This document shows, in pieces, positions 48,507 through 58,397 of a DNA stretch of 64,000 nt. The stretch spans positions 18,426 through 82,425 of the forward strand of contig CAIRJF010000014.1 of the NCBI GenBank assembly GCA_903878805.1, read 5' to 3'. Origin of the DNA: an uncultured Verrucomicrobia subdivision 3 bacterium (lineage in GTDB: Bacteria > Verrucomicrobiota > Verrucomicrobiia > Limisphaerales > UBA11358). How positions within the stretch are numbered: position 1 is the stretch's first letter; each line of letters starts with the position of its first letter. The translations under genes were made by a program, and so were the position numbers. Below the pieces are notes generated by a model. That model saw only the letters and a list, made by a program, of their open reading frames with translations, did no database searches and was not told where the DNA came from.

Positions 48507-49424
48507 TCATTCATTTGGTTTGGTCGTGAAACCTGCGACGACGGGGCGATGGTCGGAGCCGACGCCCCAGTTGGCAATTACAGGAATAAAACTTTCGTGT
48601 GCGAGCCAGAATGGTTTCATCGCGGGACTCAATAAAATGTAATCAATGCGGCTGTAAGTGTCGTTTTTGCCAAAGTAATACGTCCAACTGACGTTGCGCG
48701 GCTCGAAGTAGGGCGGTTCGCCGTGGGCGTTGTCGCCGTTGCGCTCGGCGGGGCGCGTGTCGAACAGTTTGGTTTTGCCGTGACCGATGATTTGCCGGAT
48801 GGCAGACGAATCTTTTTCGTCGTTGAAATCGCCGAGGACGATGAGCCTGGCCTCGGGATTTTGAGCGAGCCGCGCATCAACAAGGTTACGCAATACTTTC
48901 GCTTCGCCGAGGCGTTCCTCGGCCTCGTCCGCGTCGGGCGTGATGAGATGTGATTTCAGGTGCGCGGCGATGAGCGTGAAAGTGAAGTTGGTTGCGGACT
49001 GGATGTCCACTTCCGCGAAGCCGCGCTTCACCTGAAAGCGTTTGCCGTCGAGCAGATAGGATTCGTTCGTGTGCGGCCGCCGCGCGACGATGGGAAATTT
49101 GCTCAACACGGCGAGGTGGATGTTGGTGTCGAAACTTTGCACGTGTTCCCAGAATGGAAAATCGAGTCCCTCGGCCTTGAGTGAGGCGCGCAATTCCAGC
49201 AGCGCGTTGGTCGTGCCCATTTCCTCGAGCGCGAGCACATCGGGATTGATGGCGCGGATGGTTTCGCGAATTTTCGCTTTGGCCTCGGCGGTTTTGACTT
49301 GGGAACGCGAGGCGGTCGGCTGGTCGAGATAATTTTCGACGTTGTAAGTCGCGACGCGGAAAGTGTCGGCGAAGGAATTCAGGTCAGCCAGTAGTAAAAT
49401 GAGAAGGGCAAGGCGACGAATCAT
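48507..49424 (-). CDS. Secreted endonuclease/exonuclease/phosphatase (EEP) family protein
   Basis: Signal peptide MIRRLALLILLLADLNSFA, FRVATYNVENY, LALEEMG, SDHRPV. The ORF is open to 49481. Confidence 0.8.
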   Translation of the reverse strand: MIRRLALLILLLADLNSFADTFRVATYNVENYLDQPTASRSQVKTAEAKAKIRETIRAINPDVLALEEMGTTNALLELRASLKAEGLDFPFWEHVQSFDTNIHLAVLSKFPIVARRPHTNESYLLDGKRFQVKRGFAEVDIQSATNFTFTLIAAHLKSHLITPDADEAEERLGEAKVLRNLVDARLAQNPEARLIVLGDFNDEKDSSAIRQIIGHGKTKLFDTRPAERNGDNAHGEPPYFEPRNVSWTYYFGKNDTYSRIDYILLSPAMKPFWLAHESFIPVIANWGVGSDHRPVVAGFTTKPNE

Positions 49425-49570
49425 GCGGCAGATTAAATAGGACGGGCGTCGGACGAAAGAAAAACTGTTGAAATCGGCCAATAAAACCGGGGTTTTAATG
49501 GGCGAAAAATATTTTGAACAAATTGATGGTGGCTCGGTCTATTATTCTGATTGGTTTGGGTTATGGGTTA

Positions 49571-49613
49571 AAGCGCCTGACTTTTATTGGGTTTTAGTCA
49601 GGCGCTTTTTTTT
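49571..49613 (+). terminator. Intrinsic-terminator-like hairpin inside the folE2 5' leader (attenuator/riboswitch expression-platform candidate)
   Basis: aagcgcctgac-(15-nt loop)-gtcaggcgctt, an 11-bp perfect stem, followed by a T8 run. It ends 34 nt upstream of the folE2 ATG, and no upstream + strand gene exists to terminate. Confidence 0.55.
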
Positions 49614-49646
49614 GCCCAAATCGGACTAACCTGCTATTTTTCACCC

Positions 49647-50498
49647 ATGTCTCGAAAAGCCAAAAGCAAAGTTTCCCCGCTGAAGTTGGACGACAAGCAA
49701 AGTGAGCGCGATACGCGCGAACTGAACATTGATAAAGTCGGCGTTCGCGGGCTGCGGTTTCCCATCCAAGTGCGCGACCGCGTTCGCCGTATTCAAAACA
49801 CCGTGGCGACGCTGGGGATGTTCGTGGATTTGCCGAAAGAATTCAAAGGCACGCACATGAGCCGGTTTGTCGAAGTGCTCACGTCGCACGGCAATGTCAT
49901 CCACGTTGAGAACATCACGGAGATTCTGCAGGAGTTGCAGCGGAAACTGAATTCCGCCACATCGCACTTGGAAATTGAGTTTCCGTATTTCATGAGCAAG
50001 AAGTCACCGGTGTCGCGGCGGGAAAGTTTGATGGATTACGTGGCGCGTTTCGACGCGGCGGCGTGCGGGAAAGAAACGGATTTCGTTTTGACGGTGAAGG
50101 TGAACGTGACGACGCTGTGTCCGTGTTCCAAGGCGATTGCCAAATACGGCGCGCACAATCAGCGCGGCGAGGTGACGGTGGCCTTGCGCTTCAGGAAAAC
50201 GGTGTGGATCGAGGAAGTCATCGAGATGATCGAAGCGTCGGCGAGTTCGGAACTTTACGCATTGCTCAAGCGCCAAGACGAAAAAGCGGTGACCGAACGC
50301 GCATATGAAAATCCGGTGTTCGTCGAAGATTTAGTGCGCAACGTGGCGCTGCGGCTCAACGCACATCCGCTGGTGACTTGGTATAAAGTTGAGGCGGAGA
50401 ACTTCGAGAGCATCCACAATCACAACGCTTATGCGTGCATTGAGCGTCGTCCGGAAATCCGCATCAAAATGGCCAAACTGCCGGCGGGAAAGCGTTGA
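49647..50498 (+). CDS. folE2: GTP cyclohydrolase FolE2 (GCYH-IB)
   Basis: IDKVGVRGLRFPI, GTHMSRF, LCPCSK, GAHNQRG motifs. Start at MSRKAKSK (49647), not 49587, which would translate the hairpin. Confidence 0.88.
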   Translation: MSRKAKSKVSPLKLDDKQSERDTRELNIDKVGVRGLRFPIQVRDRVRRIQNTVATLGMFVDLPKEFKGTHMSRFVEVLTSHGNVIHVENITEILQELQRKLNSATSHLEIEFPYFMSKKSPVSRRESLMDYVARFDAAACGKETDFVLTVKVNVTTLCPCSKAIAKYGAHNQRGEVTVALRFRKTVWIEEVIEMIEASASSELYALLKRQDEKAVTERAYENPVFVEDLVRNVALRLNAHPLVTWYKVEAENFESIHNHNAYACIERRPEIRIKMAKLPAGKR

Positions 50499-50603
50499 AA
50501 GCAGCGAAAATTTCCAAAAATTTGTGTGGCGTATTTGATTCCTTTTGATACATTCCCGCGCTCTTGATGAACTGGCATTGTTGCCAGGAATAATTTTAAT
50601 TTT

Positions 50604-51200
50604 GTGACCGCAAAGAAAAAAATGTCTAAAAAACCTGCCGCGCGCAGTAAATCGCAGGCTGTTGCCACGTCGGCCGCCATCTTGGGTCGCCCGGTGGCCA
50701 AGGCCAGCGCCGGTCCCGATTTGAAGAAAGTGAAACCGGAATGGCAAAAGTTCTGTCTCCATTTGCTGGAGTTGCGTGAGCAATTGACCAAGCAGATGAG
50801 CGGCCTCGCCGAAGAATCGGCGCAGGAAATGGCCGGTTACAGTCTGCACATGGCGGATTCCGGCACGGATAATTTTGACCGCGATTTTGCGTTGAGCTTG
50901 TTGTCGTCCGATCAGGACGCGGTTTTTGAAATTGAGGAAGCGCTCAAGCGCATCGAACGCAAGACGTATGGCGTTTGCGAATTGACCGGGAAAAATATTC
51001 CCAAGGCGCGTCTCGAAGCGATTCCGTGGACCCGTTTTACGGTGGACGCACAGGCGCAACTCGAACGTGAAGGGGCGTTGAAATCCCGTCGCCTAGGCGC
51101 ACTTGGAACGATAGATGCCGTCGGTGCCACCACGGATGTGGACGGCGACGATGACGAACACGGCGACGAACCGGCAAAAGCAAACAAAGACAAAGAATAA
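50604..51200 (+). CDS. TraR/DksA-family protein lacking the 4-Cys zinc finger (DksA2-like C-minus form) with acidic tail
   Basis: YGVCELTGKNIPKARLEAIPWTRFTVDAQ aligns to the DksA C4 finger, but only the first Cys is kept. A coiled-coil region precedes it. Confidence 0.7.
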   Translation: MTAKKKMSKKPAARSKSQAVATSAAILGRPVAKASAGPDLKKVKPEWQKFCLHLLELREQLTKQMSGLAEESAQEMAGYSLHMADSGTDNFDRDFALSLLSSDQDAVFEIEEALKRIERKTYGVCELTGKNIPKARLEAIPWTRFTVDAQAQLEREGALKSRRLGALGTIDAVGATTDVDGDDDEHGDEPAKANKDKE

Positions 51201-51203
51201 TTT

Positions 51204-51371
51204 ATGGCTCGCGAAACCATCACCATCGAATGCTCGGAAGCACGCAAGGAAGGCAAGTCGCCTTCGCGCTACACCACCAGCCGCAATAAAAAATTGCAGA
51301 CGGAAAAGCTGGAAGTGAAAAAATACAACCCCGCGCTCCGCCGCCACACCTTGCACAAGGAGATTAAATAA
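51204..51371 (+). CDS. rpmG: 50S ribosomal protein L33, Cys-less (C-minus) form
   Basis: 55-aa ORF, below the track cutoff. [55 protein letters not shown]. The CxxC pairs are replaced (CSEA, NPAL). Confidence 0.85.
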
Positions 51372-51374
51372 TTT

Positions 51375-51632
51375 ATGCCCCGCAAGACCAATACCGATAA
51401 GAAGACTGACAAGCGCGGCAAGAGCGTCCGCGAACAGCGCACGCCGCGCCCGAAGCCGAAGTGCGATTTCACCATTGACGCGCTCGACTACAAGAACGTC
51501 ACCTTGCTCCGCACCTTCGTGACGGATCAGGGCCGCATCCTGCCGCGCAAATACACCGGCCTGCCCGCGCCGTATCAACGGCGCATGACCGCCGCCATCA
51601 AGCGCGCGCGTCAGATGCTGTTGATGAAGTAA
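51375..51632 (+). CDS. rpsR: 30S ribosomal protein S18
   Basis: [47 protein letters not shown]. Confidence 0.9.
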
Positions 51633-51641
51633 TTCTCCCGC

Positions 51642-51678
51642 CGCCTCGTTTCGCCAACGTGAAACGGGGCGTTTTTTT
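51642..51678 (+). terminator. Rho-independent terminator after rpsR
   Basis: cgcctcgtttc-(8-nt loop)-gaaacggggcg (11 bp, one mismatch) followed by T7. Confidence 0.7.
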
Positions 51679-51679
51679 C

Positions 51680-51706
51680 TGCAAATCAGTTGCAAACGAT
51701 TTGCAA
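51680..51706. promoter_or_regulatory. Overlapping palindromes upstream of the ZIP-fur operon (candidate Fur/Zur box)
   Basis: TGCAA-atcag-TTGCA overlapping a perfect TTGCAAA-cga-TTTGCAA (51690-51706), 25 nt upstream of the ZIP start. Confidence 0.45.
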
Positions 51707-51730
51707 TTAAATCAAACTGCTGCTGTCACC

Positions 51731-52459
51731 ATGGAATACTTTGTTTTACTTTCGAGCATCGCCCTCGGCGCACTTACCGTTTTCTGGTTGCGCTTGACCG
51801 ATGCTAAACGCGTGAAGGTGCTCAATGCCTTCACCGGTTCGTATTTGCTCACGCTGGTGATGTTGCATCTGTTGCCGGATTTGTATGAACCGGAAGCTGG
51901 CGTCGCGCTGAAACCACTGGTCATCGGCGGATTCATTCTTTTTGGTTTCTTTCTGCAAATCGCGATGGATTCCATTTCGATGGGGATTGAACACGGACAC
52001 GCGCACGAAATCCATGGGCGGATGGCTTTCGGAATTCTTGCCGGCTTGTGTATACACGCATTTGTCGAGGCGCTCGCGCTTGGCAAATCGCCGGAACACC
52101 AGACCGCACACGATCTGGCCGCGCATCATTTTCTGCTCGTCAGTGTTGTCGTGCATAATTATCCCATCTCCATCGCGCTGCTGGGAATGCTGCTGCAAAG
52201 CGGCATGAAAAAATCATCTGCGCTGCTGTGCCTCGGCCTGTTCGCCGTCATGGCGCCGATTGGAATGTTTACCAGCAGCTACACCGGCCTCGCAGTCTAT
52301 TCGCGCTACCTGATGGCGATTGTCATTGGCATTTTCATGCACATTTCTACGACCATTTTGTTCGAGAGCGAAGATCACCACCGCGTTCCGGTCGGGAAAA
52401 TGATTGCCATCATCGTCGGCCTGATTTTGGGAATCGCCTGCGTCATTTTTGAAGCATGA
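51731..52459 (+). CDS. ZIP-family divalent metal (zinc) transporter
   Basis: Polytopic. His-rich loop GIEHGHAHEIHG and the HAFVEALALG motif. ATG at 51731 (MEYFVLL). Confidence 0.8.
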   Translation: MEYFVLLSSIALGALTVFWLRLTDAKRVKVLNAFTGSYLLTLVMLHLLPDLYEPEAGVALKPLVIGGFILFGFFLQIAMDSISMGIEHGHAHEIHGRMAFGILAGLCIHAFVEALALGKSPEHQTAHDLAAHHFLLVSVVVHNYPISIALLGMLLQSGMKKSSALLCLGLFAVMAPIGMFTSSYTGLAVYSRYLMAIVIGIFMHISTTILFESEDHHRVPVGKMIAIIVGLILGIACVIFEA

Positions 52460-52917
52460 AGAAAACCTGCGCACACAAGCATGCGGAGAAAAAGCAGGAA
52501 CTATCTTCGCTAACCGGACGGCTACGCCGCGAAGCGCATAAAATCACGAGCCCTCGCGCCGCGATTCTTGAAATTTTACGCCACCACGCGCATCCGCTGA
52601 CGAACAAGGAAATTTTTGCTGAACTGCCGAAAGGCGAATGCGACCTCGCCACGATTTACCGTGCGATGCAATTAATGGAAGAACTGGGAATGGTGAAGCG
52701 CTTTGACTTTGGGGATGGTTCCGCGCGGTTCAAACTGGTCGGCGAAGGCGACGAAAGCCACCATCATCATCTGATCTGCACCCGCTGCGCCGAGGTGGTG
52801 GAGATTGGAGAATGTTTTCCCGAGGAAATCGAGCGCCGGATTGCGAGAGCGAATGGATTCACCGGTGTGACCCACCGGCTTGAATTTTTTGGCCTCTGCC
52901 CCGGCTGCCAGAAATGA
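52456..52917 (+). CDS. Fur-family metalloregulator (Zur suggested by context)
   Basis: Winged-helix N-terminal domain, HHHHLICTRC and GLCPGC (two CxxC). ATGA overlap with the ZIP gene. Confidence 0.8.
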   Translation: MKKTCAHKHAEKKQELSSLTGRLRREAHKITSPRAAILEILRHHAHPLTNKEIFAELPKGECDLATIYRAMQLMEELGMVKRFDFGDGSARFKLVGEGDESHHHHLICTRCAEVVEIGECFPEEIERRIARANGFTGVTHRLEFFGLCPGCQK

Positions 52918-52921
52918 AAAA

Positions 52922-52941
52922 GGCGGCGATTACTCGCCGCC
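52922..52941 (-). terminator. Hairpin terminator serving the minus-strand small ORF/prmA operon
   Basis: ggcggcga-ttac-tcgccgcc (8-bp stem). On the minus strand it is followed by TTTTT. Confidence 0.5.
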
Positions 52942-52947
52942 GACATC

Positions 52948-53112
52948 TCAAGCTGTTTCCTCGGCCATCCAATCGCCGAGTTGTAAGTATTCTCTTATTT
53001 TTCTGCGCTCGTGTCTGTTCTTGAGCGACTTTTTGGTGTGATGTTCCGTCTTACGGAACGGATGTTTCGGATTGCGAATCACTTCGCCGATTACTTCGAT
53101 GCTTTTCATCAT
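52948..53112 (-). CDS. Unannotated small basic protein (54 aa)
   Basis: MMKSIEVIGEVIRNPKHPFRKTEHHTKKSLKNRHERRKIREYLQLGDWMAEETA. AGGAAA lies 6 nt upstream of the ATG and a terminator hairpin follows directly. Below the ORF-track cutoff. Confidence 0.35.
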   Translation of the reverse strand: MMKSIEVIGEVIRNPKHPFRKTEHHTKKSLKNRHERRKIREYLQLGDWMAEETA

Positions 53113-53238
53113 AGTATTTCCTTTCATTTACCAACATCGAACTGACAGCGTAAACAATGCCAACTACCATCAGCTCGAAATCTGCCTTAAAACTTCAATT
53201 TATCAGACGTCACACCCTAAACATCTGTTCAAAAATTT

Positions 53239-54150
53239 TCAGACAAAACAAAAAGAGCCAGAACACCATTCATTTTCCACGCGTTTGGCGACTAATTTTA
53301 ATTTCAATTCTACAAACGCCCGCTCCACTTCGCCAAATTCTACCGCCAGAATTCCGGCCAGCACCAAAGTGCCGCTCGGCTTCAGCCGACTCACAATTCG
53401 CCGTTTCTCGGCAATCAGCAAGTTGGAAATCAGATTTGCGCAGACCAAATCATATTGCCGCACTGGTTTCAGCGGCAGTTTGGTCACATCGCCGCGCGTC
53501 AGCGTGAGTTTGGCGTCAACACGGTTCTTGCGCGCATTTTCCTTCGCCACGCGGACGGATTCAGGATCAAAATCAAACGCATGAACCGGTTGATAACCCA
53601 GCTTGGCGGCGGCAATCGCCAGAATTCCCGATCCCGTGCCGATATCCAAAATTGATTTTGCTTTGGTGGGGCGAGCGTTCGCGCGAGCCGCTCGCACAAT
53701 TTCATTCAAGCAAAACGAAGTCGTCGGATGCTGGCCAGTGCCGAAGCTCAAGCCGGGATCAAGAATGACCACCGCTTGATTTTTGCGCGACTTTTGTTTG
53801 CTCCAGCTCGGTTTGACCAGCAGCGATTCGCCAATTTCCATCGGGTGAAAATGGCGCTTCCAAGATTCCTTCCAGTCCTCGCGCTTCACCTTGGAGATTT
53901 CAATTTTGCCCGCGCCAATTTTAAGTCCGCAACTTTCAATCCGATTCAATCCGTTGGTAATTTCCGCGCCCATCTTTTTTGTATCTGGTTTTTCATCGCG
54001 GAAAATGCTGATCGTGCTGACGCCGGTTTCCAGATTGAAGTAGGACGCCGTTGCCGCCCCGAAAAGTTCGCCAAGCATTTCAGTCACGGCGTCCTCGGCT
54101 TCGAGCGAAGTCGTAACGGAAACGCACCAAAGTGGTTTGTTTGATTTCAT
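53239..54150 (-). CDS. prmA: Ribosomal protein L11 methyltransferase
   Basis: ILDPGLSFGTGQHPTT, ILDIGTGSGILAIAAAKLG, VCANLI motifs. Confidence 0.9.
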   Translation of the reverse strand: MKSNKPLWCVSVTTSLEAEDAVTEMLGELFGAATASYFNLETGVSTISIFRDEKPDTKKMGAEITNGLNRIESCGLKIGAGKIEISKVKREDWKESWKRHFHPMEIGESLLVKPSWSKQKSRKNQAVVILDPGLSFGTGQHPTTSFCLNEIVRAARANARPTKAKSILDIGTGSGILAIAAAKLGYQPVHAFDFDPESVRVAKENARKNRVDAKLTLTRGDVTKLPLKPVRQYDLVCANLISNLLIAEKRRIVSRLKPSGTLVLAGILAVEFGEVERAFVELKLKLVAKRVENEWCSGSFCFV

Positions 54151-55634: not shown

Positions 55635-58397
55635 TTACGGCGTGGACAGTCGATAGAAGCGCGTTGGTAAGGTCGCGGCGTCCGGGTCGGTCGCCTGCCA
55701 TTGGCCGCTGGCGTCGGCGGTGTTGGTGGAAATATTCGTCCACGATTTCAGGTCGGCGCTGGCTTGGAGAATGTAATTCGCCCCGGCCGTGCCGCTGGCA
55801 TTCAGCGTGATGCCGCCAGCGGAATTACGGCTGACGTTAGTGATGAACGGCGGCAACGATAGTGTGGTTAAACTGGTTTGCGTCCGCAAATTATCATTGC
55901 CACCGCCGTTGCCTCCGCTCGTCACGGTCAAAGTGGCTTTGGCACTAGTCGCGCTGCCGGCAAAATTGGCGACGACGGCGTAGTAAGTTGCCATATCGGT
56001 GGCCTTGGCGTTGGCGATGGTGAAAACAAAATTCGTCGCGCCGGAAATTACTTTGGTATTTTTATACCATTGGCAGCGCAGCGGAGCCGTGCCGGTGGCG
56101 CTCGTGCCGAAGCTCACGCGTCGACCGCTGCGCACCGTCTGGCTTACCGGCGATGCGGTGATGACGGGCGGCACAAAAACGGTCAGCGCGGTTGGCGGGC
56201 TGGTCGCGCGGCCCACGGGATTGCTGACCAAGACATTGTAAACGGCAGTTTCGTTGGTCGTGAGCGAGGTGATTTTGAGGACGTTGGTGGTCGCGCCAGA
56301 AACATTTCCGCCGTCCACCAGCGCGACGCCGTTTTTGAACCATTGGTAGCGCAACGGCGCGCTGCCGGTCGGGCTGATGGTAAGCACAGCATTTGTTCCT
56401 GAGCGCGCTAAACCGCCCGACTGCGGTATGGTGATGCGCGGAGCCGCCGCGATGCTCGGCGGAGTCAAAACTGATAATTTCGCCGCCACGCTGGTGACGC
56501 TACCGTAAACATTTTTTACAATGACAGAATAATTAGCGCTGTTTTTCGCCGTGGTTTTCAACAGCGTCAGCGAACTGCTGGTCGCGCCGGAAACGGTGGC
56601 GCTGTTCGCGAGCTTCGCGCCATTTTTCAACCATTGATATGTCAACGGATTGCTGCCAGTGGCAGCGACGCTGAAAACGGCGTTGCTGCCCACGGCCACA
56701 AACTGATTGGCGGGCGGGACGGTGATGATGGGAGCGACATTGACGGAAATGGTCGCGTTAGTGCTGGTGATACTGCCAACCACATTACTCACCACGACGA
56801 AGTAAGTTGCGACTTCATTCGTTGTGAGTGCAGCGATGGTTAAAACATTTGAGGACGAACCGGAAACGTTCCCGCCATCCGCCAACGCCACGCCAGACTG
56901 GAACCATTGATAACTTAACGGGCCGGTTCCGCTCGCATTGACCGAAAGTTTAATGGTGCTGCCGAGCGCGCCAAACTGGCTGGCCGGTTGGGTGGCGATG
57001 CTGGGCGGAGTTTGCACGGTCAATGTGGCGGTTCCGCTCGTCGCGTTCCCGGCGGCATTGGCCACGGTGACAGAATAATTTGCTGCGTCAGTTGTGGCAG
57101 CACTGGCGAACGTGAGTGTGGCACTCGTCGCGCCGGAAATGTTCACGCCATTTTTCAACCATTGATACGTCAGTGGCGCGGTGCCGCTCGCAATGACGGT
57201 GAAGGCAGCAGAATTTCCCTGCGTGACAGTCGCGCTGGCTGGTGCGGTGATAATGGTCGGCGGCACCAACACCGTCAGCGTCGCGGAGGAACTCGCGATG
57301 GAGCCAACGATGTTGGTGACCAGGACAGAATAGCTCGCCGCGTCATTCGTCGTGACGGCGGTCAGAGTGAGAACATTCGAAGTCGCACCGGAAATGGGTG
57401 AACCATTTTTCAGCCATTGATATGTCAGTGGCGCAGTGCCGCTGGCGGTGACGGTGAAAGCAACATTGCTGCTTTGCGCGACAATTACGTTTGCCGGTTG
57501 CGACGTGATTGCGGGCGGCGTCAACACGGTCAGCGTGGCGGTGCTGCTGGTGACGCTGCTGGCGGTATTACCGACGACGACCGAGTAATTCGCTGCATCC
57601 GTCGTGGAAATATTGACGATTGTGAGCGTTGCGCTCGTCGCTCCGGAAATGTTAACTCCATTTTTCAGCCACTGATAAGTCAGCGTTCCGCTACCGCTGG
57701 CGGTGATAGTGATGGAAACATTGCTCCCGGCAACCGCCGTGACGCTGGCTGGCTGGGTGACAATGGTCGGCGGCACCAGCACGGTCAGCGTCGCGGAGGA
57801 ACTCGCGATGAAGCCGACAATGTTGGTGACCAGGACAGAATAGCTTGCCGCGTCATTCGTCGTGACGGCGGTCAGCGTAAGAACATTCGAGGTCGCACCG
57901 GAAATGGGCGCGCTATTTTTCAGCCATTGATAAGTCAGTGGCGCGGTGCCGCTGGCCGTGACGGTAAAAGAAACATTGCTGCCTTGCGCAACAGTTGTGT
58001 TTGTCGGTTGCGATGTGATGGCGGGCGGAGCCAACACCGTCAACGTGGCGGCAGCGCTGGTGGTGCTGCCAACGGCGTTGGTGACAGTTACCGAATAATT
58101 CGCCGCGTCCGCTATCGTCACATTGGCGAGGGCGAGCGTGGCGGAAGTTGCGCCGGAAATCTTAACATTATTTTTCAACCATTGATAAGTGAGCGGAGCC
58201 GTGCCGCTGGCGGTGACGCTGAAAGTAACATTGCTGCCGGCGAGAATGGTTGCGCCGACCGGCAACGCCGTGATGGCCGGCGGGATAGCCACGGTCAACG
58301 TGGCAGCTGGGCTGATGACACCTCCGAGACAAGGACATTCTGGGCTTGATGGCGCAGGCGGAAAATGCTGAAGGTAATTATCCGGCTGGAACCACAT
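55635..58397 (-). CDS. Ig-like (I-set type) repeat protein, 9 tandem ~85-aa domains + C-terminal FYRL domain; apparently 5'-truncated (possible pseudogene)
   Basis: Nine units of ...GSNV.FTVTASGTAPLTYQWLKNG..ISGATS..LT...V...DAA.YSV.V.N..GS..S..ATLTV. The N-terminus MWFQPDNYLQHFPPAPSSPECPCLGGVISPAATLTV lacks a signal peptide and enters the repeat mid-domain. Confidence 0.7.
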   Translation of the reverse strand: MWFQPDNYLQHFPPAPSSPECPCLGGVISPAATLTVAIPPAITALPVGATILAGSNVTFSVTASGTAPLTYQWLKNNVKISGATSATLALANVTIADAANYSVTVTNAVGSTTSAAATLTVLAPPAITSQPTNTTVAQGSNVSFTVTASGTAPLTYQWLKNSAPISGATSNVLTLTAVTTNDAASYSVLVTNIVGFIASSSATLTVLVPPTIVTQPASVTAVAGSNVSITITASGSGTLTYQWLKNGVNISGATSATLTIVNISTTDAANYSVVVGNTASSVTSSTATLTVLTPPAITSQPANVIVAQSSNVAFTVTASGTAPLTYQWLKNGSPISGATSNVLTLTAVTTNDAASYSVLVTNIVGSIASSSATLTVLVPPTIITAPASATVTQGNSAAFTVIASGTAPLTYQWLKNGVNISGATSATLTFASAATTDAANYSVTVANAAGNATSGTATLTVQTPPSIATQPASQFGALGSTIKLSVNASGTGPLSYQWFQSGVALADGGNVSGSSSNVLTIAALTTNEVATYFVVVSNVVGSITSTNATISVNVAPIITVPPANQFVAVGSNAVFSVAATGSNPLTYQWLKNGAKLANSATVSGATSSSLTLLKTTAKNSANYSVIVKNVYGSVTSVAAKLSVLTPPSIAAAPRITIPQSGGLARSGTNAVLTISPTGSAPLRYQWFKNGVALVDGGNVSGATTNVLKITSLTTNETAVYNVLVSNPVGRATSPPTALTVFVPPVITASPVSQTVRSGRRVSFGTSATGTAPLRCQWYKNTKVISGATNFVFTIANAKATDMATYYAVVANFAGSATSAKATLTVTSGGNGGGNDNLRTQTSLTTLSLPPFITNVSRNSAGGITLNASGTAGANYILQASADLKSWTNISTNTADASGQWQATDPDAATLPTRFYRLSTP

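Follow-up and report, generated by a model that had tools for sequence, protein, structure and literature searches.

A probable self-repressed Zur cassette beside folE2 and a dksA-rpmG-rpsR operon in Verrucomicrobia subdivision 3

In this study, a stretch of 64,000 nucleotides (hereafter the window) from an uncultured Verrucomicrobia subdivision 3 bacterium (GenBank assembly GCA_903878805.1, contig CAIRJF010000014.1, positions 18,426 to 82,425 of the forward strand) was analyzed. At positions 49647-52917 it carries six adjacent plus-strand genes, namely folE2, dksA, rpmG, rpsR, a gene for a ZIP-family metal importer, and a gene for a Fur-family regulator. An initial annotation had read all six as one dedicated zinc-limitation island. 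One part of this proposal stands, as the ZIP and regulator genes form a metal-responsive uptake cassette, whereas a single island sharing one operator was not found. Instead, the 3.3 kb probably consist of three or four neighboring transcription units, with only the ZIP-regulator pair being a probable self-repressed Zur cassette.

All six open reading frames (ORFs) are present, and their families were confirmed by profile searches. The first gene, folE2 (49647..50498), encodes GTP cyclohydrolase IB; its product scored 283.5 bits with NF010200, above the NCBIfam equivalog cutoff of 215 bits, and matched PF02649 with an E-value of 3.5e-94. It is followed by dksA (50604..51200), which starts with GTG and encodes a C1-type DksA/TraR-family protein of 198 aa (PF01258) with a lysine/alanine-rich N-terminal extension, by rpmG (51204..51371) for ribosomal protein L33 (TIGR01023 and NF001860, both above cutoffs), and by rpsR (51375..51632) for S18 (PF01084; TIGR00165, 65 bits at a cutoff of 38.75). 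The dksA/rpmG and rpmG/rpsR gaps comprise 3 nt each, and both junctions read TAATTTATG. The ZIP gene is located at 51731..52459 (PF02535, 72.7 bits at a gathering threshold of 35.1), and the gene for the regulator, a proposed Zur, at 52456..52917 (PF01475, E-value 3.8e-27). These two genes overlap by ATGA, the coupling that had been noticed before.

Related loci were obtained by scanning species-representative genomes with the DksA protein, and the window proteins were mapped to them by tblastn. The resulting sample comprises 63 loci, nearly all from metagenome-assembled genomes (MAGs) labelled Verrucomicrobia subdivision 3, Limisphaerales or Pedosphaera; 57 of the loci were evaluable for the counts of regulator genes and palindromes given below. 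DksA identity ranges from 95% down to about 59% across the related loci, and more than 100 environmental proteins match the window DksA with 81-98% identity. The dksA-rpmG-rpsR triad was found in the same order and with tight spacing in every locus covering it (about 60 related loci), and rpsR directly follows rpmG at its 3′ side in all of them, so that the linkage of the S18 and L33 genes emphasized in the initial annotation is borne out. Of 60 related loci, about 36 have folE2 ahead of dksA; 42 of the 57 evaluable ones have a Fur-family gene downstream, and only about 22 have a ZIP of the window type. Since the arrangement recurs in related loci, it did not arise by chance in a single genome. 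As lineage-specific synteny, the dksA-rpmG-rpsR operon is unusual, though not remarkable.

Between rpsR and the ZIP gene lies a candidate operator, the perfect palindrome TTGCAAAcgaTTTGCAA at 51690-51706, with a third, overlapping upstream half-site CTGCAAAtcaGTTGCAA at 51679-51695; the whole region spans 51679..51706. The core of the palindrome is TGCAAA-N3-TTTGCA, which can be written in the 7-3-7 form TTGCAAA-N3-TTTGCAA or equally in the 7-1-7 form TGCAAAy-N-rTTTGCA, and its halves contain -35-like TTGCAA hexamers. Scans were done with up to 3 mismatches in the 64-kb window, where the palindrome at 51690-51706 is the sole site with 0-2 mismatches, and with up to 2 mismatches in all related loci. 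There, it occurs once per locus, 47-61 nt past the rpsR stop codon in nearly all cases (typically about 55-60 nt; 80 nt in L040), and always precedes a metal importer and/or a Fur-family gene. The same position is kept in 35 of the 57 evaluable loci. Both palindrome and regulator gene are present in 34 of these 57 and neither in 14, while 8 have the regulator gene with a degenerate or absent site and a single locus has the site only. Upstream of folE2 or dksA, no TGCAAA-N3-TTTGCA was present, either in the window at up to 3 mismatches or in the about 60 relatives at up to 2 mismatches. An operator shared by all six genes was therefore not found, as the palindrome appears only after the terminator that follows rpsR. 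The initial annotation itself had named the lack of a shared operator as an outcome speaking against an island, and this is what the scans returned. A TTTGC-N8-GCAAA repeat present in many folE2 promoters was considered as the same operator and rejected, because its half-sites are reversed and the window itself does not have it.

A metagenome scan with the exact 17-mer TTGCAAACGATTTGCAA gave at least 120 loci. Among the matches listed, 16 represent the same verrucomicrobial rpsR-adjacent site and about 29 more, on contigs with 30-70% GC, have as neighbors a Fur-family gene (identity 24-59%), ZnuA-like or ZIP-like genes, or both, which makes about 45 listed matches in all with such neighbors. 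On two contigs with about 30% GC (L097, L162), the 17-mer is located directly 5′ of genes for His-rich COG0523-like proteins, a family assigned here by reading the sequence. COG0523 proteins are a classic target of Zur. Thus, the box is a widespread Fur-family operator type, mostly but not only associated with zinc genes.

The upstream regions of folE2 and dksA have conserved blocks of their own. For folE2, the block TTTTGCCAAAT...CTGCTAyTTT (49612..49641, plus strand) is kept in nearly all loci with folE2; it ends about 6 nt before the ATG and presumably serves as promoter. No Shine-Dalgarno sequence is visible upstream of folE2. Both at folE2 (49612-49649) and at the ZIP gene (51707-51733), a promoter-like block ends at most about 10 nt from the ATG and a Shine-Dalgarno sequence is missing, which suggests leaderless or near-leaderless mRNAs. 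Upstream of dksA, an AT-rich block that hardly varies, with a GC-rich segment after it (GAAAATTTCnAAAATTTGTGTGGCGTATTTGATTnCnTTTGATACATTCCCGCGCTC), covers 50506..50566 on the plus strand and is the presumed promoter of dksA-rpmG-rpsR. Since this block of about 60 bp is conserved regardless of whether folE2 or unrelated genes stand upstream, the triad has its own control region. Its interpretation as a classical arrangement of UP element, -35, -10 and discriminator was rejected due to a spacing that misfits the sigma-70 consensus. A short GC hairpin with a T-rich tail follows at 50572..50587 (plus strand) in the presumed 5′-untranslated region of dksA; its position is conserved and its sequence varies. 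RNAalifold predicted 4 pairs, one of them with a double change, which supports the hairpin weakly, and a structured leader is not claimed; the hairpin could be an attenuator or a stop for read-through from folE2. The triad is closed by an intrinsic terminator at 51642..51678 (plus strand), consisting of a 13-pair stem (51642-51671) and T7, and an equivalent GC-rich hairpin with a T-run follows the rpsR stop codon in nearly all related loci. Rfam searches of the whole window at gathering thresholds, and of 49400-53300 at permissive E-values, revealed no riboswitch or ribosomal-protein leader.

The slot after the palindrome is occupied by different importers. The ZIP protein of the window comprises 242 aa from a conserved ATG (related loci keep the start MEY/MDY...) and has a His-rich loop, EHGHAHEIHG; it gave no NCBIfam equivalog match, so the profile assigns no substrate. 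Besides this type, the slot can hold a second, unrelated-looking ZIP/ZupT-like protein (L007, L008, L011, L015, L035), a third, His-rich ZIP in metagenome loci such as L167, the regulator alone, or znuA-znuC-znuB followed by the regulator gene (L055, L061, L064, L067, and L068, which has the same order and no recognizable palindrome). Where the regulator is present, the importer stands between the operator and the regulator gene (loci including L047). Different importers in the same slot point to repeated in-place replacement.

The loci with a znuA-znuC-znuB system provide the main evidence on the metal. Their ZnuA-like proteins have His-rich loops, e.g. HLPGEHGHHHHDGPNPHLWLDP, and the loop aligns with those of solved zinc-binding proteins. 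The best solved matches are all zinc-binding (YcdH 143 bits, AdcA 136 bits, Lmb, and ZnuA 120-124 bits), while manganese-binding proteins score at most 92 bits and YfeA, named as iron-binding, 103-105 bits. In such binding proteins, as known from ZnuA and PsaA, a His as third ligand marks the zinc types and a Glu the manganese types. Here, the third ligand position is a His (YHHAF), resulting in a three-histidine site. The ATPase and permease of the ATP-binding cassette (ABC) system have ZnuC/AztA and AztB/ZnuB, respectively, as best matches.

The regulator itself has a Fur-family domain with the structural four-cysteine site expected of Zur, formed by C108, C111, C148 and C151 (CxxC at 108-111 and 148-151), and an HHHH motif at residues 102-105, as in actinobacterial Zur proteins. 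Its proposed placement as Zur did not hold at the level of sequence, as NCBIfam and PDB scores place it closer to Fur than to Zur; the order by similarity is Fur, PerR, Zur, with no equivalog cutoff reached, and is not decisive for the class. The assignment comes from genomic linkage, as the same operator and an orthologous regulator flank either znuACB, encoding the ZnuA with His-rich loop and three-His site, or ZIP importers. The regulator is called Zur mainly because of the znuA-znuC-znuB context in relatives. Given the cassette model, it is very probable from this genomic context that the metal is zinc and the regulator a Zur. Full-text searching of the literature turned up no paper dealing with Zur in Verrucomicrobia.

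For the gene products of the triad, the initial annotation had described a DksA with one of its four finger cysteines left and an L33 without either CxxC pair. Both descriptions are correct: DksA reads CELT-x17-TVDA, and L33, having lost the CxxC zinc-ribbon cysteines, reads ECSE...NPAL. As special zinc-sparing features, however, they could not be upheld, as both are typical of the lineage, with their nearest solved counterparts being the sole DksA of Chlamydia and ribosomal L33 of Bacteroidota. The best solved match of DksA was the C. trachomatis protein (6PTG; E-value 9e-22), with Pseudomonas DksA2 reaching 4e-5 and E. coli DksA 1e-4. With CELT-x17-TVDA, the window protein has the C1-type motif CxxS/T-x17-C/S/TxxA, in which the first cysteine is kept, and Chlamydia genomes encode a single DksA, which is of C1 type (PMC9126822). 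The window protein and Chlamydia DksA share the one-cysteine motif CxxT/S-x17-TxxA as well as an HxADxGTDxFDR coiled-coil segment. Chlamydiae and Verrucomicrobia belong to the same Planctomycetes-Verrucomicrobia-Chlamydiae (PVC) superphylum, and because its nearest solved match is the sole DksA of Chlamydia, the one-cysteine DksA is best read as the ancestral, working form of the group. In contrast to the Chlamydia protein, the verrucomicrobial one is extended at its N-terminus by about 45 residues of basic character and ends in an acidic tail, and the gene context is dksA-rpmG-rpsR here versus nrdR-dksA-lspA in Chlamydia. E. coli DksA needs an acidic DxxDxA coiled-coil tip for its action on RNA polymerase. 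DEADLA of Pseudomonas DksA2 aligns with HMADSG in the window protein, which like the Chlamydia protein (HQADQG) retains just the second Asp.

The best solved matches of L33 were chloroplast-type bL33 and then L33 of the P. gingivalis (9I5T) and F. johnsoniae (7JIL) ribosomes, which align over almost the full length with 52.6 and 46.6 bits, respectively. All of them share ECxE...NPxL in place of the two CxxC pairs. The cysteine-less Bacteroidota proteins (9I5T, 7JIL) were found in ribosomes purified from normally grown cells. Because the same state thus occurs in ribosome-incorporated L33, the lack of cysteines does not discriminate. The gene context differs, with rpmG between dksA and rpsR here and in an rpmB-rpmG-bL38 operon in Bacteroidia (PMC11851116). 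In the related loci, L33 is 64-100% identical, with at least 75% in all but the very divergent L068 (64%), and it is more conserved than FtsZ or PrmA across the same loci. S18 has a single cysteine, as usual in most bacterial S18 proteins such as that of E. coli, and nothing marks it as an alternative form. In the local neighborhoods of 189 loci, no genes for L28, L31, L36, S14, S6 or L9 were found, nor a second one for L33 or S18, and the window likewise has no second L33 or S18 gene. On the basis of these sequence comparisons, the one-cysteine DksA and the cysteine-less L33 are best read as the forms usual for this section of the bacterial tree. The conservation of L33, the types of DksA and L33, and the cysteine of S18 favor primary, constitutive genes, and the products of dksA-rpmG-rpsR are most likely the working copies.

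Under the arrangement that we consider probable, folE2 would be transcribed from its own conserved promoter-like block as the first unit. The tightly packed dksA-rpmG-rpsR operon would form the second, with its own upstream block and ending at the intrinsic terminator. Past this terminator, the palindrome, the ZIP gene and the translationally coupled regulator gene would make up the third. As in other Fur-family repressors, a dimer of the metal-loaded regulator would bind the palindrome and thereby block the promoter of its own operon; at low metal, the regulator would dissociate, and importer and regulator would both be made. Transcription of folE2 and dksA-rpmG-rpsR would proceed from their own promoters independently of the regulator.

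A known counterpart is znuABC-zur of Desulfovibrio with the predicted Zur box ATGCAACnnnGTTGCAT upstream (PMC545781). As there, the gene for the Fur-family regulator comes last in the importer operon, and related verrucomicrobial loci with znuA-znuC-znuB and the regulator gene have exactly such a layout. Both boxes, each predicted only, are 17-bp 7-3-7 palindromes with a TGCAA core just upstream of the operon. They differ in the inner half-site bases, TGCAAA here and TGCAAC in Desulfovibrio. Furthermore, the importer of the window is a ZIP protein and not an ABC system, and its regulator has no close sequence similarity to characterized Zur proteins. As a probable self-repressed importer-zur operon, the cassette belongs to an ordinary type of system, and its box is a variant of the predicted one.

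Several observations weigh against this interpretation and were considered together with other explanations. With regard to the metal, the regulator reached 109 bits with the NCBIfam model of Bacillus Fur (cutoff 220), 70 bits with PerR and 32 bits with E. coli Zur, all below the cutoffs, and among PDB entries it scored 91.6 with Fur (9ire), 71.8 with PerR, 61.6 with Mycobacterium Zur and 54.8 with Streptomyces Zur. The Joint Genome Institute (JGI) names its orthologues 'ferric uptake regulator'. ZIP transporters are broad in specificity and can carry iron or manganese besides zinc, and on three contigs with about 60% GC from other lineages (L086, L141, L145) the exact 17-mer lies directly 5′ of manganese-type NRAMP/MntH-like genes, a family again assigned by reading the sequence. 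Therefore, the box sequence alone does not identify the metal, and its presence before both NRAMP and COG0523-like genes indicates that Fur-family regulators of different metals and phyla share this box type. All this would fit an iron or manganese system, in which a true Fur or Mur represses a ZupT-like ZIP importer of Fe2+ or Mn2+. We regard such a system as unlikely, because the binding protein of the orthologous cassettes scores more than 35 bits higher with zinc-specific proteins than with iron- or manganese-binding ones and carries the His-rich loop and the third-ligand His, the accompanying ATPase and permease are closest to zinc systems, the HHHH motif of the regulator may point to Zur, and the same box also precedes znuA-like and His-rich COG0523-like genes in other lineages. 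The automated 'ferric uptake regulator' labels are thus probably wrong.

With regard to the extent of Zur control, all six genes could form one zinc-limitation island, with FolE2, the one-cysteine DksA, the cysteine-less L33 and S18 as starvation-induced paralogues that replace zinc-containing primary proteins encoded elsewhere. Zur-regulated zinc-sparing operons do exist, e.g. rpmB2-rpmG2-rpsN2-rpsR2 in Actinobacteria. All six families are documented as members of Zur regulons in other phyla, and the contiguous set of FolE2, cysteine-poor DksA, cysteine-less L33 and S18 families side by side resembles the zinc-sparing set dksA2/folE2/rpmE2/rpmJ2 of Pseudomonas, yet genes count as true members of a Zur regulon only if they have a Zur box, proven binding, or both (PMC6103462). 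Unlike in those sets, the window genes have no Zur box in front, so that membership is not established for folE2 or for dksA-rpmG-rpsR, although a consensus scan could miss a Zur site that is degenerate or of another kind in front of folE2 or dksA. The conserved terminator separates rpsR from the operator. Also in contrast to zinc-sparing sets, the triad is universal in the lineage sample including the 14 loci without the cassette, no zinc-containing counterparts were found in the local neighborhoods searched, and the high identity of L33 in all but one locus and the nearly invariant block upstream of dksA are as expected for core genes. Together with the fact that Chlamydia has the same form of DksA as its sole copy and Bacteroidota incorporate the same form of L33 into their ribosomes, this makes such an island quite improbable. 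The zinc cassette has, however, stayed immediately behind dksA-rpmG-rpsR despite deep divergence (DksA down to about 59%) and several replacements of the importer, which speaks for an island and is not explained by a purely accidental neighborhood. One version would be a relic, in which an ancestral Zur-controlled zinc-sparing operon became the only, constitutive copy after loss of the zinc-containing primaries, leaving the adjacency as a fossil. The conserved adjacency that outlasts importer swaps agrees with this, as does the rpmG-rpsR linkage, which is unusual compared to the rpmB-rpmG operon reported for Bacteroidia (PMC11851116). We nevertheless consider the relic very improbable, since no trace of an operator is left upstream of dksA and since cysteine-less L33 and C1-type DksA are shared with other phyla and are therefore older than this lineage. 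More generally, there is a small chance that the cassette has been locked behind the triad throughout the order, and through at least four importer replacements, for a reason, either functional, with read-through or an operator roadblock coupling zinc import to the synthesis of ribosomes and DksA, or by such a descent to sole copies; the latter, if true, would mean a transcription and translation apparatus permanently economical with zinc.

The surroundings of the six genes are those of core functions. Upstream in the window lie mraY, murG, murB and ftsZ of a cell-division and cell-wall cluster, and downstream prmA, a histidine phosphatase gene, the RNase PH gene and aspS for aspartyl-tRNA synthetase. 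No composition anomaly was seen at the locus, which, together with the core-gene neighbors, argues against an accessory island. A GC-rich hairpin at 52922..52941 is located between the regulator gene and a convergent small minus-strand ORF; it is terminator-like on the minus strand only, where the T-run lies. This ORF (52948-53127, minus strand), between the regulator gene and prmA, encodes a basic protein of 54-59 aa (...NPKHPFRK...KKSLKNRHERRKIREYLQLGDW...) without Pfam match, and it is kept on the prmA strand in about 50 related loci, also in those without the zinc cassette. Farther downstream, at 55635-58397 on the minus strand, a 920-aa protein built of about nine immunoglobulin-like repeats (Ig_3/I-set) is encoded.

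Between folE2 and a divergent phosphatase-family gene, a conserved element at 49500-49613 (plus strand) was detected only in the subgroup of the window (10 loci). It has a promoter-like sequence, AAATAnTTTGAAC...GGTCTAtt, followed by about 65 nt of G/U-rich sequence in which TTGGGTT motifs recur, and then a terminator with a 9-bp stem (GCGCCTGAC...GTCAGGCGC) and T8, in which one compensatory change from C:G to A:T occurs. The element is a small RNA candidate; Rfam gave no family for it and only a chance match to mir-14 (E-value 0.19). Within the sample of related loci, L023, L040, L043, L045, L061 and L062 have record titles naming Bifidobacteriaceae, Candidatus Acidoferrum or Akkermansia muciniphila despite a typically verrucomicrobial locus, which are probably binning or labelling errors. 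Two contigs of the same MAG, SMAG_U7775 (L007 and L066), overlap at folE2-dksA with slightly different sequences, which suggests that the strains are heterogeneous or that the assembly is broken at this locus.

Gene families known from Zur regulons do not constitute a zinc island by adjacency if only two of the six genes are served by the operator. With TGCAAA-N3-TTTGCA as a testable operator, the analysis provides a candidate Zur for Verrucomicrobia subdivision 3, a group abundant in soil and freshwater. It also documents a fixed frame of operator and regulator in which different zinc importers have been exchanged.

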